A stretch of DNA of 64,000 nucleotides from Lysobacterales bacterium. GTDB lineage: Bacteria; Pseudomonadota; Gammaproteobacteria; Xanthomonadales; SZUA-5. Made by a program: the position numbers and the translations under genes. This document shows positions 15,973-23,960 of this stretch, one piece after another (positions within the stretch are counted from its first letter, which is position 1; each line of letters begins with the position of its first letter). The notes beneath the pieces were generated by a model. It was given only the letters and a program-made list of their open reading frames with translations, was not told the origin of the DNA and did no database searches. Where the stretch lies: the NCBI GenBank assembly GCA_022844165.1, contig JALHMH010000006.1, forward strand, positions 20,167-84,166. Direction: 5' to 3'.

Positions 15973-17697
15973 ATGTCCGCCCAACAACGCCGCGCCGATG
16001 TGCTTGCCCGAGTAGCGCACTTGCCGCTGTTCGCGGGATTGGAGCGGCGTTCGTTGGTGCGGGTCGCAGATGAGCTGCAGTGGATCGCTTTGCCAGGCGG
16101 CGCCGAGCTCTTTGCCGAAAACGATGTGCCTGACGCGGTGTATGTGCTGGTTGCCGGTTCACTCGGTGCGTTTCGCCTGGTCGACGGCCGCCTGAAGTTG
16201 CTCGGCCGTGTGCAGCCGGGCGAAACGGTCGGCGAAATGGCGCTGTTGAGCGGACATGTGCGCACCGCGACAGTACGTGCATTGCGCGATTCGGAGGTCG
16301 TACGCTTTTCTCTTGAGGGCTTCGAGCGGCTGGCAAAACAGCATCCGGATGCGATGTTGGCGATCGCGCGCGTCGCGGTCGAGCGCCTGGAACGCACGCT
16401 GGAGGCCAAACGCCAGGATCCGCCGCCGCGCACGCTGGCGTTGCTGCCGGCGCATCCGGGCCTGGATCTCGAACCGCTGGTCGAGCGACTGGCGTACGCC
16501 ATGGCGCGGTTTGGCACGGTCGCGGTTGTCGGTGCGGACGAAGGACGGGATGCGACGATTTCCGAATTGCACGATATCGAAGCCGATCATGCAAAGGTGA
16601 TTTACGTCGGCAGCAGCGACCCGGCCTGGAACGAACGCTGTCGCCGCCAGGCCGACACTTTGGTTCTGGTGGCCGACGCACGTGAACCCGCCGTCGCGAT
16701 CGACGCCGCGTCAGCAACCGATGCCTATCAGGCCATTTTGCTCGTTTTGATGCACCCAGGACGTATCGTCCCCGGCGCAGCGCGCGCCTGGCGCACGCGC
16801 CTTGGTATTGAGCAACATCTGCATGTGCGCGATCACAACGATATCGATCGGCTGGCGCGCCACCTGGCGCATCGTGCCGTGGGTGTTGTGTTTTCGGGTG
16901 GCGGTGCGCGCGGGTTTGCGCACATCGGTGCGATTCGCGCCATGCGCGAGGCAGGCCTGGCGATCGATTCGGTCGGCGGTACGTCGATCGGTTCGTTGAT
17001 GGCGGCCGCGATCGCGCTCGAATGGGAAGACGATCTCATCCAGAGCTGCTTTCAGCGCTCGTTTGTGGCGACCAATCCACTGTCGGATTACACCATTCCG
17101 CTGGTGGCGCTGGTCGCGGGGCGTAAGGCTTCGCGTCTGCTGCGGCGGGAGTTTACGGAGATCGATATCGAAGACCTGCCGTTGCCGTTTTACGCGGTCT
17201 CGGCCGATCTTGCGGACGGTCGCAGTGTGGTGCATCGCAGCGGCCCCTTGTGGCGCGCATTGCGCGCGTCTATCGCGATTCCCGGCGTGTTGCCGCCGGT
17301 CTGCCAGGGCGGCAAAGTGCTCGTCGACGGCGGTGTGATCGACAATCTGCCGATCGCGGCGATGCGCAAACGCCACCACGGGCCGGTCATCGGCATCGAT
17401 ATTGCCGGCAACCACGCGCTGGCAACGGATCTGGATGAAACCGATCTGCCCTCTGCATGGGCGCTGCTGATGGCGCGCTGGCGCGGCCACCCCAAACGTC
17501 CCGGTATCTTGCGCATTTTGTTGCGTGCCGGCATGGTCAACTCCGCCAGTACCGCCGAAGCGAACGCTGCGATGAGCGATCTCATCGTCAAGCCACCCGT
17601 CGACAACATCGATCTGTTGGCCTGGCAACGCTTCGAAGATGCGATCGCAAGCGGCTATGCGCACACTCGCGCGGCGTTGGCGAAGGCGACGCTGTGA
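15973..17697 (+). CDS. cyclic-nucleotide-binding domain + patatin-like phospholipase
   Basis: cNMP-binding segment (GETVGEMALLSGHVRTATVRA). Patatin motifs GGGARG and GTSIGS (GxSxG), plus DGG near the catalytic Asp. Confidence 0.85.
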   Translation: MSAQQRRADVLARVAHLPLFAGLERRSLVRVADELQWIALPGGAELFAENDVPDAVYVLVAGSLGAFRLVDGRLKLLGRVQPGETVGEMALLSGHVRTATVRALRDSEVVRFSLEGFERLAKQHPDAMLAIARVAVERLERTLEAKRQDPPPRTLALLPAHPGLDLEPLVERLAYAMARFGTVAVVGADEGRDATISELHDIEADHAKVIYVGSSDPAWNERCRRQADTLVLVADAREPAVAIDAASATDAYQAILLVLMHPGRIVPGAARAWRTRLGIEQHLHVRDHNDIDRLARHLAHRAVGVVFSGGGARGFAHIGAIRAMREAGLAIDSVGGTSIGSLMAAAIALEWEDDLIQSCFQRSFVATNPLSDYTIPLVALVAGRKASRLLRREFTEIDIEDLPLPFYAVSADLADGRSVVHRSGPLWRALRASIAIPGVLPPVCQGGKVLVDGGVIDNLPIAAMRKRHHGPVIGIDIAGNHALATDLDETDLPSAWALLMARWRGHPKRPGILRILLRAGMVNSASTAEANAAMSDLIVKPPVDNIDLLAWQRFEDAIASGYAHTRAALAKATL

Positions 17698-17831: not shown

Positions 17832-18284
17832 ATGGCTGAGACCGGAGCGTTGGGCTGGATAAGTGGCGCCTTGGGTGGTTTGTTCAAACAGGAACAACTG
17901 GATCCAAAAGAGGAAATTTTCATCGCCGTGCTGTTCGCATTGCTCGGCTCGCTGGCCCGCGCTGACGGTGTGGTGTCCGCCGAAGAGGCGGCGCATGGCG
18001 AAGAACTCATCGATCGCATGCAGTTATCCAAAGCTGGCCGCAAGCTGGCGTTTACGCACTTCGAACGTGGTCGCGCTGGCGGGCTCAATGTTGAAGCGGA
18101 GTTGAACCGTTTTCTGGCCGTGTTTCGGCAGAGTTCAACCCACTCTGAGCAATTGATGGAAGCGTTGTTGACCTTGGCGCGTGCCGATGGTCGCATGCGC
18201 ATTCCTGAAAAATCGTGGTTGACGCGCGTCGGCACACGACTCGGGATCGATTCGGAGACACTGAAGGAGCGCATCGGCTCCTGA
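17832..18284 (+). CDS. TerB-family (DjlA N-domain-like) protein
   Basis: Two repeats of LARADG..(V/M) with helical spacing typical of TerB domains. No J domain. Confidence 0.55.
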
Positions 18285-19444: not shown

Positions 19445-20085
19445 GACCATCCATCGGCAAACGTGGGCGTTTGATTTTTGCCGGTATCGATGCGCTGCTG
19501 CCGTTGCTGGGAATACTCTGCTTCGGCTGGTCGGCCGTGGCTTATGTGATCTGGTTCCTGGCCGACTGTGTGCTCGTGCCAGCGGGTGCAGTCGCCCGCC
19601 GCGTGCAGTTCCAACTCCATGGCTTCGATCCTGGCCCAGAGGCGAATTGGGTGGATCACGCTTCGTTGTGGCTGGCGCCAGTGCTGACGCTGGGTTTGTT
19701 CGCACTGGTCATGGGCGCAGGGCTGGCGGCATTCCTGGTGCCGTTGATTTTGTTTTCCAACTGGTGGCCAGCCATCGTTGCCGCTTGGCACAGCGAGCTG
19801 TTTTTCGCGATCGTTTCCAGCCTGGTGCTCCAAACTTTCGCCACGTTGCGACCCAGCCAGCCGCTGAAATCGATTGAGGCGGCGTTTGCCCAGGAACACC
19901 AAAGCGCATTGCCGTTGGCCTTGGCCTTGATCGTGATGCCAGGCGCCATTGCCGCTGGCGCGGCGCTCGGACAGAGTGGCTTGATGATCGTCGCTACGGT
20001 CGCTTCGGCGCTGCGCCTGGTGTTGGCCTGGTATCAGGAATCGCGCGCGCCCAGCGATGAGTCAGCGCCGCCACGGCGGCGGTGA
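19441..20085 (+). CDS. hypothetical multi-pass membrane protein
   Basis: Five to six hydrophobic helices. The GTG at 19441 overlaps the upstream stop (GTGA). The 3-prime end overlaps the aceE 3-prime end convergently by 24 nt. Confidence 0.5.
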
Positions 20086-22959
20086 AGAAGCGCGGGCGTG
20101 GGTCACAATGGCGTGGCCCTCCAAGCGCAATGCATGCCGCGCAGCATTCGCGATCGAATCGGCATCGACTTCGAAAAAGCGCCGCAGCGCCGCGCGCGTG
20201 TCGCTGCGGCCGAAGCCGTCGGTGCCGAGCGTGACGTAGCGGCGTGGCACGAAGGCGCGGATCAGCTCGGGCAGTGCGCGGATGTAATCGCTCGCCGCGA
20301 TCACGGGTCCTGGCAGGTGCTGCAGTTGCTGCGTGACCCACGGTGTGCGCGGCTCGTCGTCGGGCGCGAGGCGCGCGAGGCGTTCGCATTCGATGCCATC
20401 GCGGTGCAGCTCGGTCCAACTGGTCACGCTGAAGACGTAGACGTCGATGCCTTCGGCGCGCAGCGTATCGGCCGCGCGCAGGGCTTGCCCAAGAATCGGG
20501 CCGGAGGCGAGCAGGCTCACGGTGGGTGGCGGTGGCGGATCGTTCGCCGGTTTGGGGCCACGGCGTTTGAGTTTGGCGAGTGCACGCGTTTCGATTTCGC
20601 GGATGCGTTCGCGCGTGACGTCAAACTGCGCAGCGACCTCTTCCAACGTCGTGTCCCCCACGTTGCCGATGTCTATTCCAAGTTTCTCCTTGAGGACGCG
20701 TCGTTCGCGCTCGGATAAGTTGAAGCTCGGCGACAGCCGGTACATACCGCGCAGAACACCATCTCGGACGGACGCGTCTGTTGTTGGCGAGAGCGCGGCA
20801 AGCCAAGCCGCGGGCAGCGACGGCTGCGCCGCATTCTCGTTGCACACCGTCAAGTAATAGAACACATCGTTTTGCTCAACCAACATCTCCTCAATTCCGC
20901 GCTCCACGATCAGCGCCACCTCATACGCAAAAGCCGGATCGTAGGCGCGGCAATTGGGCACGCCAGCAAATCCCAGATGGCTCGATCCATCCTGATGCTG
21001 CAGTCCCTCGCCGCCCAACGTGGTACGTCCGCTGGTCGCGCCGAGCAAGAATCCCCGCGCGCGCTGATCGGCGGCGGCCCAGATCAAATCGCCGACGCGT
21101 TGCCAGCCGAACATCGAGTAGTAGATGTAGAACGGCAGCATCGGCAAATCGTGCGTCGAATAACTGGTCGCCGCTGCGATCCAGGAACTGATCGCGCCGG
21201 CCTCGGAGATGCCTTCTTCCAGGATCTGGCCGCTCTGCGTTTCGCGGTAATAGAGCATCGAGCCCATATCCTCGGGCTCGTACTTCTGGCCGTGCGGCGC
21301 GTAGATGCCGACCTGACGAAACAGACTGGCCATGCCGAAAGTGCGCGCCTCGTCGGCGACAATCGGCACCACGCGCGGGCCGATATGCTCGTCTTTCAGA
21401 AGGTTGCCGAGCATGCGTACGACCGCCATCGTCGTCGACATTTCCTTGCCGTTGGCTTCCAACGCAAATGTCGCAAAGCTCGCCGCGCTGGGCGCCGGCA
21501 ATCTCTCGCTGCTGCGCTGGCGCCGCCGCGGCAGATAGCCGCCGAGCGCCTCGCGGCGCGCGTGCAGATAGCGCAGCTCCGGGCTGTCCGGCGGCGGCGC
21601 GTAAAACTTGACCGCATCGACATCGCTATCGGAGAGCGGCAGCGCGAAACGGTCGCGAAATCCGCGCAGCTCCTCGCTATCGAGCTTTTTCTGCTGATGC
21701 GTGGTCATGCGACCTTGCCCGGCTTTGCCCATGCCGAAACCCTTCATCGTTTTTGCCAGCACCACGGTCGGCTGGCCGCGATGCGCAATTGCTGCCGCAT
21801 AGGCCGCATGCAGCTTGCGCGCATCGTGCCCGCCGCGGCGCAGGCGATCGATATCGGCGTCCGACAAACCATCGATCAGTCGCGTCAACTCCGAGCTTTG
21901 GCCAAAGAAGCGCTCGCGGTTGTAGGCGCCATCGTTCGCCGAAAACGTCTGGAACTGGCCATCGACCGTTTGTGCGAACGCGCGCAGCAATTCGCCGCTG
22001 CTATCGCGCGCGAACAGCGCGTCCCAATCCGATCCCCACAACACTTTGATCACATGCCAGCCGGCGCCGGTGAACAGCGCCTCCAACTCGTCGATCACGC
22101 GCGAATTGCCGCGCACCGGACCATCGAGCCGCTGCAGATTGCAGTTGATCACGAAAGTCAGATTGTCGAGGCCTTCGCGCGCAGCGAGCGACAGAGCGCC
22201 GATCGACTCGGGTTCGTCCATCTCGCCATCGCCAAAAAAACCCCAGACGCGACGCCCTCCGCCGGCGTGCAATCCACGGTGCTCCAGATAACGCAGAAAT
22301 CGCGCCTGATAAATCGCGTTGATCGGGCCCAGGCCCATGGAGCCGGTCGGGAACTGCCAGAAGTCCGGCATCAGCCATGGGTGCGGATAGGAGCACAGTC
22401 CGGGTTGATCAATCTCGCGTCGATAGTGATGCAAGCGCGATTCCGGCAAGTAGCCTTCCAAATAAGCCCGCGCATACACACCGGGCGCCGAATGCGGCTG
22501 CAGGAACACCAGATCGCTGCCGTCGGGATGTTCGGGGCCTTTGAAGAAGTGATGAAAGCCGACCTCGAACAAATCCGCCGCCGACGCGTAGGAGGCGATA
22601 TGACCACCCAACTCGCCAGCTTCGGTATTGGCGCGCACCACCATGGCCAGCGCGTTCCAACGCATCGCCGCATTGAGCCGTGCTTCCAGATCCAGATCTC
22701 CCGGATACGGCGGTTCCGCGCTGCGAGGAATGGTGTTGCAATAAGGCGTGATACGCGCCCGCGCCGAGTTCACACCGCGCGTCAAAGCGTGATCGGCGAG
22801 CCGGTCGAACAAGTACTGCGCGCGTGCCTTGCCGCCGCGCGCGACGACGCTATCGAGCGCCTCTAACCACTCCTGCGTCTCCGCCGGATCGTCGTCCATC
22901 GCGCTCGATGCGATCGCCAGTGCGCGTATCGCTGCGGGTGGGAAATCGGCTGGTTGCAT
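20062..22959 (-). CDS. aceE: pyruvate dehydrogenase E1 component (homodimeric type) carrying an in-frame ~60-aa insertion
   Basis: [15 protein letters not shown] N-terminus, ThDP motif [12 protein letters not shown], C-terminal [14 protein letters not shown]. Start is either ATG 22959 or ATG 22899; the track start 23094 is unlikely. Confidence 0.9.
   Translation of the reverse strand: [965 protein letters not shown]
20521..20730 (-). other. sigma-70 region 4 (4.2 HTH)-like segment plus Pro-rich linker embedded in aceE
   Basis: [54 protein letters not shown] matches the RpoD C-terminal pattern (L..RE..VL...G.......TLEEV...F.[12 protein letters not shown].KL). It is followed by [12 protein letters not shown]. 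It sits where E. coli AceE has only a ~10-aa loop (YKL-ETIEGSKGK-VQLLGSG). Confidence 0.8.
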
Positions 22960-23051
22960 GGCGATGCTCTGCGGTGAACTGGCGCGAAGCATAGTGTGGC
23001 GGAGACTCGATGCGACTGGCCGCTTGTGCGATGGGCGTGCGCACGTCAAAC

Positions 23052-23555
23052 TCAGCTTAACCAGCGACGAGCGTCCTTTAACAACAACAGCCACTGCTGT
23101 GGCCGCAGTGGCGAAACGACGAACCCAAAGCGCGAGTAGAACTTTTCCGCACCTTCATCGATAGGGTGCGTCAGAATCGCGCGGATACCTGCCTGTTCGG
23201 CAACTTTCATTGTGCGGCGGATTGCATCTTGCAGCAATCCGATTCCGATTCCACGCCCGTGCCGGTGCTGCGACACCGCCAATCGCGCCAGAATCACGAC
23301 AGGAATCGGATATTGCCCCAGCCCTTTGCGGATGCGTTCGGGTACCTCCAGCACATCGACCTGGCCGACAGTCAAGCTGTAGTAGCCGACCACACGAGCA
23401 TCGTCAGAAACGACGAAGGTCTTGGCCGACCCGCTGGCTTGCGCTTGTCTGGCGTGGCGCGTCAACCAATCGTTGAGCGAGTGTTTGCCGCAGTCAAATC
23501 CTTCGAGAGTGTGGCCCGCATTCAGCGGCTCGGGTTCGCGCAAAATCACGCCCAA
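23052..23555 (-). CDS. GNAT-family acetyltransferase toxin (TacT/KacT-like)
   Basis: 167 aa. LEGFDCGKHSLNDWL followed by the GNAT core (RHGRGIGIGLL). Overlaps the upstream DUF1778-type gene by 10 nt. Confidence 0.85.
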   Translation of the reverse strand: MGVILREPEPLNAGHTLEGFDCGKHSLNDWLTRHARQAQASGSAKTFVVSDDARVVGYYSLTVGQVDVLEVPERIRKGLGQYPIPVVILARLAVSQHRHGRGIGIGLLQDAIRRTMKVAEQAGIRAILTHPIDEGAEKFYSRFGFVVSPLRPQQWLLLLKDARRWLS

Positions 23556-23833
23556 GGCGCCTTGCGCGAAAACAAATCGCGCAAGCCCTCATTAACCTGT
23601 TCGGGTTGCTCCAGCAGCGTCAACAGCGCTTGGTACTCGCTGCCAGTGACCATAAATATCCGCTGGTCCAGCAAAGTTTGCTCGGCCGCCAAACAAGCAC
23701 TGTCGAGAATGAAGTCCGTTAGCGACTTGTGCGCCAACTCAGCTGCACGGCGCAGTACAAGCTCTTGTTGTTGAGTAGCGCGTAGCCCCAAACGAGCAGT
23801 TCGAGCCGAAGGTGAAGGAGCGACTACGTTCAT
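23546..23833 (-). CDS. DUF1778-family antitoxin (TacA/KacA-like)
   Basis: About 95 aa ribbon-helix-helix-type partner (RLGLRATQQQELVLRRAAELAHKSLTDFILDSA). ATG 23833 is preferred over track start 23887. Confidence 0.8.
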   Translation of the reverse strand: MNVVAPSPSARTARLGLRATQQQELVLRRAAELAHKSLTDFILDSACLAAEQTLLDQRIFMVTGSEYQALLTLLEQPEQVNEGLRDLFSRKAPWA

Positions 23834-23960
23834 GACTATTCTGATCGTTAATGCAGTCGCTATGTTAGTACAAATGACAAACATCATCCAGCGTGTACTT
23901 CAACGACGAACAACTGGGTATCGTCGCAATCACTAGAGCATCGCTCAAGGAGCAGATCGT

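Follow-up and report, generated by a model that had tools for sequence, protein, structure and literature searches.

An old, in-frame sigma-70 region 4 insert in an AceE-type E1 gene of uncultured Lysobacterales and its probable capture from rpoD

INTRODUCTION

Bacteria, to our knowledge, rarely show a natural insertion in which a complete, recognizable domain of an essential housekeeping gene such as rpoD has entered a loop of a metabolic enzyme unrelated to it. A full-text literature search returned no description of a domain corresponding to region 4 of the primary sigma factor (sigma4) within an E1 or transketolase-like enzyme, and likewise none for the E1 family TIGR03186. At the DNA level, GGGNATC heptamer repeats are a described feature of xanthomonad genomes, in which about 40% of them stand in convergent inverted pairs, and they are mostly intergenic and under-represented in open reading frames (ORFs) (Rehm et al. 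2015, PMC4692102). Herein, we analyzed a 64-kb stretch of contig JALHMH010000006.1 from a Lysobacterales bacterium, hereafter the window, in which a gene for the E1 component of a 2-oxoacid dehydrogenase carries a sigma4 insert in frame, and compared it with homologous genes whose inserts are bracketed by heptamer arrays.

We propose, with a probability of roughly 70%, that the insert goes back to one ancient event in which a fragment of rpoD was captured into a permissive linker on the surface of an E1 paralogue, that this event was associated with heptamer repeats, and that the fragment has been retained under purifying selection. In the following, the inserted segment and its counterparts in relatives are called the cassette, the heptamer arrays at its borders are called the arms, and database proteins and loci are numbered with the prefixes P and L, respectively.

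RESULTS

A sigma4 domain is inserted in frame

The minus-strand ORF at 20062..23094 carries the sigma-70 region 4 insert in frame, and reading of the ORF revealed neither a stop codon nor a frameshift in it (Table 1). The Pfam profile Sigma70_r4 (PF04545), which the original prediction had suggested as a check of the 71-aa insert, matched at 48.8 bits (cutoff 24.1, E=5e-13), both with the insert alone and within the whole protein. The best NCBIfam models for the insert were RpoD models, for example PRK05658, in which positions 568-618 of 631 were aligned. In a phmmer search against the PDB, the insert aligned with residues 551-600 of E. coli sigma70 (E=1e-11), and the best chains were those of sigma4 bound to Rsd (2P7V), AsiA (1TLH) and PhoB/beta-flap (3T72). 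At the level of sequence, these results confirm far beyond chance that the insert is a sigma-70 region 4 domain. In relatives, the similarity of the cassette reaches further upstream, into the RpoD segment VRDVLAGLTPRE. At the start of the recognition helix, the window copy keeps R584, E585, R586 and R588 (sigma70 numbering), and Q589 is replaced by Glu (E788 of the E1 protein); with these five residues, group 1 sigma factors read the -35 element.

Table 1. Coordinates of the E1 gene, its extra segments and the adjoining toxin-antitoxin pair in the window
Feature	Position	Strand	Protein residues	Remarks
E1 component gene, AceE paralogue (predicted)	20062..22959	-	965 aa + stop	Homodimeric thiamine diphosphate (ThDP)-dependent 2-oxoacid dehydrogenase E1
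Whole in-frame insert	20521..20733	-	743-813 (71 aa)	Not in outgroup E1 proteins
N-terminal junction peptide SPSFN	20719..20733	-	743-747	Place of the (GGGACTC)n array in relatives
Sigma-70 region 4 core (4.1 + 4.2)	20557..20718	-	748-801	Corresponds to E. coli sigma70 L551-S602
Recognition helix start	20590..20625	-		Corresponds to sigma70 F580-E591
Pro-rich C-terminal linker	20521..20556	-	802-813	Place of the (GAGTCCC)n array in relatives
Second extra segment	20770..20805	-	719-730 (12 aa)	Just upstream of the insert
TacT-like GNAT toxin	23052-23555	-		Directly upstream of the E1 gene
TacA antitoxin	23546-23887	-		Directly upstream of the E1 gene

Much of what the original prediction had read from the letters alone holds. 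It had proposed an in-frame helix-turn-helix (HTH) resembling sigma-70 region 4.2, and the module identified (E=5e-13) comprises region 4.1 and the HTH of 4.2; the Pro-rich linker behind the sigma segment and the unbroken frame were likewise found. Of its coordinates, 20521-20730, the start is retained and the end moves to 20733.

No second copy of the cassette was found in the window, and sigma factor region 2 was not detected in the 1010-aa ORF, whose Pfam matches are the E1 domains and Sigma70_r4 only. An intein would be recognized by a Hint domain, a Cys or Ser at the N-junction, a His-Asn followed by Cys, Ser or Thr at the C-junction, and a length of at least about 130 aa. This candidate was rejected, because the insert has no Hint or intein match in Pfam, is 71 aa long, and has the junctions RL/SPSFN and PPPPT/VS. 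An independent small gene on either strand was rejected as well, since the antisense ORFs at 20098-20718 and 20447-20857 are ordinary high-GC shadow ORFs. Together with a third long plus-strand ORF antisense to the E1 gene (20872-22866), they have the typical appearance of such ORFs, and no gene evidence was seen for them.

The host is an AceE-type E1 gene

Homologue support places the start of the E1 gene at the ATG at 22959, and the ORF itself runs to a GTG at 23094. The protein is 100% identical to a database protein of 965 aa (P0001) and contains all three E1 domains (Pfam PDH_E1_M, Transketolase_N and Transketolase_C_1). It is collinear with the E. coli E1 (1L8A; E=1.9e-295) apart from a break between E. 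coli residues 703 and 726, at the junction of the middle and C-terminal domains, so the linker before the C-terminal domain, where the insert had first been placed, is indeed its site. The ThDP-binding GDG...NCN motif, which ends in NCNLQRLDG, is invariant in the E1 alignments.

The gene had been taken for canonical aceE. Among the NCBIfam models, TIGR00759 (aceE) scored 1332.4 bits (cutoff 859.9) and TIGR03186 (AKGDH_not_PDH) scored 1529.4 bits (cutoff 1408.3). Since TIGR03186 is above its curated cutoff and outscores TIGR00759, the host is an AceE paralogue of the TIGR03186 family, which NCBIfam names alpha-ketoglutarate dehydrogenase, rather than canonical AceE, with pyruvate or 2-oxoglutarate as its candidate substrate. 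No E2 or E3 gene adjoins E1 in the window or lies near it in the neighbourhoods of the relatives that were examined. The second extra segment of 12 aa (residues 719-730) is common to the window and the L020/L018 lineage only and does not occur in the other relatives.

The insert is real and old

A full-length armless allele of 965 aa (P0241) was found on 7 contigs that stem from different samples (ENA and Logan), and the E1 gene of this allele (P0241/L020) shares 86.6% nucleotide and 93.5% amino acid identity with the window (20132-22994). Homologous inserts at the same site occur in further independent assemblies (P0002/L001/L017, P0008/L005-6, P0003-7/L002-4, P0021/L007, P0249, P0250 and L016), and one insert-bearing protein of the third group, P0004, is present in identical form on 8 contigs. 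The named sources of insert-bearing E1 proteins are metagenome-assembled genomes (MAGs) of Rhodanobacteraceae, Lysobacterales and Xanthomonadales, and the insert-bearing clade consists of uncultured soil and water bacteria. The cassette is common to E1 lineages separated by a synonymous divergence (dS) of about 0.7-1 or more, at which synonymous sites are near saturation. The insert is therefore real and old. An assembly or engineering artefact, which had been raised as one meaning of the insert, is essentially excluded by its presence on 7 contigs (P0241) and 8 contigs (P0004) and by the divergence of the inserts to synonymous saturation.

The original prediction had further read a foreign or recent origin from codons that are rare in this genome. 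The insert has a GC content of 61.0% (69% at third codon positions), compared with 64.0% and 76% in the rest of the E1 gene, and the codons TTA, ATA, CTT, GGA and CGA occur once each in the insert (5/71), compared with 22/895 in the rest of the gene. These differences are too small to serve as evidence of recent transfer, and with a cassette shared across saturated lineages the suggestion of a foreign or recent origin fell away. The cassettes share 39-75% protein identity with the rpoD product of a Xanthomonadales locus (L019), or 53-75% when the divergent P0021 copy is set aside, and the window copy shares 59%. The proportion of synonymous differences (pS) between the cassettes and this rpoD is 0.52-0.72. 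Such identities and pS values give no indication that the cassette was copied recently at the DNA level.

The cassette is confined to one clade and probably arose once

In a neighbour-joining tree of 66 E1 sequences, for which the insert was masked, every protein that carries an insert fell into one clade; E1 proteins outside it (from Burkholderiales, Nevskiales, Aquimonas and others) have a linker of 5-12 aa. Within the clade, the cassette states are interspersed on the tree. The full cassette is present in the window, P0002, P0008 and P0021; P0003/4 have a small internal deletion; P0016 has a degenerate cassette with no Pfam match; P0013 and P0017 keep the arms with a short loop; and P0009-12, P0014, P0015 and P0018-20 have remnants of 5-22 aa. 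For example, P0002, with an insert of 113 aa, is sister to P0011 and P0014, which have 22 aa each. The simplest reading would be one ancestral gain followed by many deletions, and recombination between E1 alleles may be an alternative source of the patchiness. Had the segment been universal in AceE of this order, it would have counted as conserved rather than novel; it is restricted to one clade and patchy within it.

Besides the window copy, eight variants pass the Sigma70_r4 cutoff. Six of them were scanned with the profile and scored 28.7-54.5 bits (P0004, P0021, P0249, P0250, L016 and the L020 allele), and the status of P0002 and P0008 was taken from precomputed Pfam annotation. Q589 is replaced by Glu in 8/9 cassette variants and by Ser in the ninth, and M561 is replaced by Glu or Asp in 6/9; both positions are unchanged (Q and M) in all 21 RpoD fragments. 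In addition, E585 is replaced by Gln in most of the relatives' cassettes. The shared derived residues Q589E and acidic M561 point to a single origin.

We then searched for the cassette elsewhere with a degenerate DNA pattern for FDVTR[EQ]RI[RL]EIE. Among genomes of 185,579 species, one genome per species, there were 3 matches, all at the E1 site in MAGs of Rhodanobacteraceae/Lysobacterales. The window copy fits the pattern and is absent from these matches, from which it follows that its source genome is not a GTDB species representative. The same pattern gave 0 matches in IMG/VR viral contigs. A protein profile search, the results of which were swamped by RpoD fragments, identified no other host protein for arms plus sigma4. 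In metagenome contigs, a search for an arm with the FDVTR-coding motif gave 5 chance matches without a sigma4 frame, a weak negative because the known loci were not returned either. Three odd profile matches (P0121, P0122 and P0178) carry the RQIE motif of RpoD and were rejected, as they lie on short contigs that are duplicated or chimeric. P0178, on a 637-bp contig from ENA, joins a GltX-like N-terminus of about 45 residues to the C-terminus of RpoD (RQIE); this short contig is most likely chimeric and unrelated to the E1 cassette.

Heptamer arms bracket the cassette in relatives

An arm pair was scored when at least 2 tandem GGGANTN units were accompanied by a nearby second array in convergent orientation, and this feature was present in L001, L002-L010 and L016. 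In six loci (L001, L002, L005, L007, L008 and L016), the insert starts with 3-4 tandem GGGACTC (or GGGACCC) units, which translate as PGLGTRDSGLG, and finishes with the reverse complement (GAGTCCC)n, which reads ESRVPSPESR, with the sigma4 coding sequence between the two arrays. L009 has the arrangement (GGGAATC)4 ... (GATTCCC)4 with a loop of only 48 nt from which the cassette is deleted. Its peptide ...PPSL-LKTRPARRT matches both ends of the P0021 cassette, LKTRPARRT being the remnant tail, as would be expected after an internal deletion. The window contains 0 matches to GGGAMTCGGGAMTC, even when 2 mismatches are tolerated, and its insert is not flanked by an inverted repeat.

The arrays are translated within the E1 ORF of L001, L002-L010 and L016, where slippage by one unit (7 nt) would cause a frameshift. 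Slippage that truncates E1 before the C-terminal domain could be a phase-variable contingency switch in these relatives, which does not apply to the armless window copy.

The cassette is under purifying selection where it is kept

Codon alignment of the window with L020 was used to compare the proportion of nonsynonymous differences (pN) with pS. For the sigma4 core, pN was 0.118 and pS was 0.44 (omega 0.19; Fisher test, p=1.6e-5). Omega was 0.16 for the Pro-rich linker, 0.156 for the E1 C-terminal domain and 0.025 for the N-terminal 716 aa of E1. More distant cassette pairs gave pN of 0.15-0.30 versus pS of 0.55-0.86. Where it is kept, the cassette is thus under purifying selection, with a constraint similar to that of the E1 C-terminal domain and weaker than that of the N-terminal 716 aa. 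Low pN at high pS indicates that the module has long been maintained as a protein.

The conserved positions of the cassettes comprise the sigma4 hydrophobic core and, on the surface, T583, R584, E591, K593 (or R), K597 and K599. R596, with which sigma70 contacts activators, is not conserved.

Structure prediction

An AlphaFold2 model of the whole protein was computed from an alignment of 66 sequences. With low confidence, it contains helices at 750-760, 772-778 and 783-798, which correspond by the PDB alignment to the sigma4 helix 4.1, HTH-1 and the recognition helix. With the model of the isolated insert, in which helices are fused, Foldseek returned only 1TLH (E=6e-3). The insert is probably solvent-exposed, judging by its inter-domain position, its Pro-rich linker and the tolerated variation in length, and it may adopt the sigma4 fold.

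Genomic neighbourhood and other observations

In the window, the E1 gene is flanked by the TacA/TacT pair upstream and by a membrane ORF and a pyridoxal phosphate-dependent enzyme downstream. The E1 genes of relatives adjoin other toxin-antitoxin pairs (PIN/MazE and PIN/PSK). Similarity between the window and L020 ends at the ends of the E1 gene, and the flanks are unrelated; in L020-L022, a gene for a Peptidase_S74-like protein lies upstream of E1 and one for a class I tRNA synthetase lies downstream. The surroundings of the E1 gene therefore differ between close relatives.

In L018 (JALHMG010000075.1, Lysobacterales MAG Bin_30_3_3), around 2548-2583, an in-frame stretch of about 570 residues is missing from E1, owing to a real internal deletion or to mis-assembly, and N-terminus, sigma4 cassette and C-terminal domain are retained. 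A full-length version of this allele exists in L020-L022. Elsewhere in the window, a plus-strand ORF at 15973-17697 encodes a cyclic-nucleotide-binding domain fused to a patatin-like phospholipase (similar to neuropathy target esterase), and it is followed by a TerB-domain ORF at 17832-18284.

DISCUSSION

Proposed history of the insert

The identity, site, age, distribution and selection of the insert, together with the repeats that flank it in relatives, are the observations from which we reconstruct its history. A fragment of rpoD encoding region 4.1 and the HTH of 4.2 (sigma70 residues about 540-602) would have entered the E1 gene in frame, at the linker on the protein surface that joins the middle domain to the C-terminal one, in the ancestor of the uncultured Rhodanobacteraceae/Lysobacterales clade. 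Inverted GGGNNTC heptamer arrays of the xanthomonad type, which still enclose the cassette in most descendants, can pair as a hairpin or cruciform, and we infer that the cassette arrived by means of them and was later often deleted through them. In the window lineage, the arms would have eroded to SPSFN and the Pro-rich linker, and such erosion would remove the deletion-prone repeats and fix the module. The module would then be translated within E1, in two copies per homodimer, and purifying selection would preserve it as a domain that is folded and exposed to solvent. Of the three meanings offered by the original prediction, a domain-capture event thus appears to be the right one. The module is most likely an auxiliary domain on the surface, or a passenger there, without which catalysis would still proceed. 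Should it have a role, the conserved basic surface formed by R584, K593, K597 and K599, together with Q589E and acidic M561, suggests that it docks in a non-canonical manner, to a sigma4 partner or a nucleic acid, rather than reading a -35 promoter element in the ordinary way.

Several observations weigh against one part or another of this history. Strict vertical descent is challenged by cassette pS values that often exceed those of the host gene. This excess could mean that the cassette alleles are older than the split of their hosts, through recombination or independent acquisitions, or it could reflect a weaker codon bias in the cassette. As for the putative part of the arms in capture, no heptamer array was found outside the E1 insert in about 150 kb of fetched flanking DNA, and none after rpoD at the one Xanthomonadales MAG locus inspected (L019, n=1). 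The 3' end of rpoD as the source of the arms is thus not favoured by this single locus. As for the fold and exposure of the module, the whole-protein model has a mean predicted local distance difference test (pLDDT) score of 64.8 with 46-61 in the insert, and the insert modelled alone (pLDDT 73.9) has its HTH fused into one long helix. Regarding function, purifying selection on a par with that on a true enzyme domain and the fixed derived surface residues argue against a pure passenger and for some constraint that goes further than the avoidance of misfolding, and frequent deletion argues against an indispensable function.

Alternative explanations

It is possible, although we hold it only tentatively, that E1 moonlights, the displayed sigma4 docking the enzyme to the beta-flap tip of RNA polymerase, to an anti-sigma factor of the Rsd/AlgQ type, to a class II activator or to DNA. 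With the same tentative standing, such docking would tie transcription to the metabolism of 2-oxoacids or make the enzyme a sigma4 decoy. An omega of about 0.19, similar to that of the E1 C-terminal domain, is what a functional module would show, and so are the kept hydrophobic core residues, the conserved R584, K593, K597 and K599, and Q589E fixed across synonymously saturated variants; moreover, the armless form is held in at least 2 lineages that are 86.6% identical in nucleotides. However, many sister lineages have lost or degraded the cassette, and no conserved gene in the neighbourhoods of the window and its relatives hints at a partner. Q589E, E585Q and the loss of R596 also alter residues to which general knowledge of sigma70 assigns -35 reading and activator contact.

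A broader proposal, that sigma4 has become a domesticated docking domain of an abundant 2-oxoacid dehydrogenase E1 and/or that, in xanthomonad-like bacteria, inverted heptamer pairs are a vehicle copying exon-like domain cassettes of one gene into surface loops of another, we regard as doubtful.

Rather unlikely is a mobile in-frame cassette, in which arms and sigma4 together form a selfish element similar to MITEs (miniature transposable elements with inverted repeats) or to Rickettsia palindromic elements (RPEs), so that the patchiness would reflect gains. Such an element would account for the terminal inverted repeats around a fixed cargo in the relatives, for the patchy occurrence on the E1 tree and for cassette pS values above those of the host in several pairs (for example 0.71 versus 0.46 for P0002-P0021), and RPEs are a reported precedent for in-frame insertion (PMC10969869). 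The terminal repeats of RPEs and MITEs have their counterpart in the inverted arms of the relatives, not in the window, and the insertion is in frame at an inter-domain linker. Dispersed copies, the other mark of such elements, were seen neither in the 185,579 genomes nor in viral contigs, metagenome contigs or the window. The cassette was confined to one site in one gene family in those genomes, and the protein profile search added no other host protein. Between the arms of P0013, part of the cassette tail is left, indicating a deletion and not an empty site, and no transposase or RAYT gene adjoined E1 in the neighbourhoods examined.

Finally, an assembly chimera or engineered rpoD-E1 join, to which the slightly atypical composition, the few rare codons and the metagenome-derived sources might lend colour, can be dismissed, since independent assemblies from different projects and assemblers carry the insert, the cassette is 53-75% identical to Xanthomonadales RpoD with derived residues of its own, its reading frame is conserved and selection on it is purifying.

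Implications

With intact, trimmed, degenerate and deleted states in one clade, the E1 genes provide a dated natural experiment in domain insertion. Translated heptamer inverted repeats, tied here to a protein module that was gained and lost, suggest a concrete way in which domains could be shuffled at the DNA level in prokaryotes. Were the module to bind sigma4 partners, it would form a new kind of direct physical link between metabolism and transcription. For annotation, Sigma70_r4 matches within E1 proteins of Rhodanobacteraceae MAGs are to be treated as genuine and not as chimeras.

Comparison with known systems

Compared with the sigma4 of RpoD/SigA (PF04545; 2P7V, 1TLH, 3T72 and 1KU7), the insert is 52-56% identical to beta- and gamma-proteobacterial RpoD over 4.1 + 4.2 and shares the predicted helix pattern, the hydrophobic core, T583, R584, R586, R588, the basic C-terminal helix and the motif FDVTRERIR. 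It differs in being located inside an enzyme without regions 1-3, in having Glu at Q589, an acidic residue at M561 and Ala at R596, in a 2-residue insertion in the 4.1-4.2 loop, and in a Pro-rich linker that takes the place of the RpoD tail. As an E1 of the AceE type and of TIGR03186, the protein is collinear from end to end, exceeds the curated cutoff and has the ThDP motif and the three E1 domains, whereas it has 71 extra residues, and 12 more upstream of them, in the linker between the middle and C-terminal domains and no adjacent E2 or E3 gene.

As in the heptamer pairs of xanthomonads (PMC4692102), the inserts of the relatives are bracketed by 3-4 GGGACTC, GGGAATC or GGGACCC units and their complement. 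Unlike those pairs, the E1 arrays are translated in frame and enclose a protein domain, and none is left in the window. The Rickettsia RPEs and similar MITE-like repeats are alike in that a palindromic-ended segment is tolerated in frame at a surface position and translated. RPEs are multi-copy, dispersed and without a pre-existing domain, whereas the E1 cassette occupies a single site and has a domain of a housekeeping gene as its cargo.

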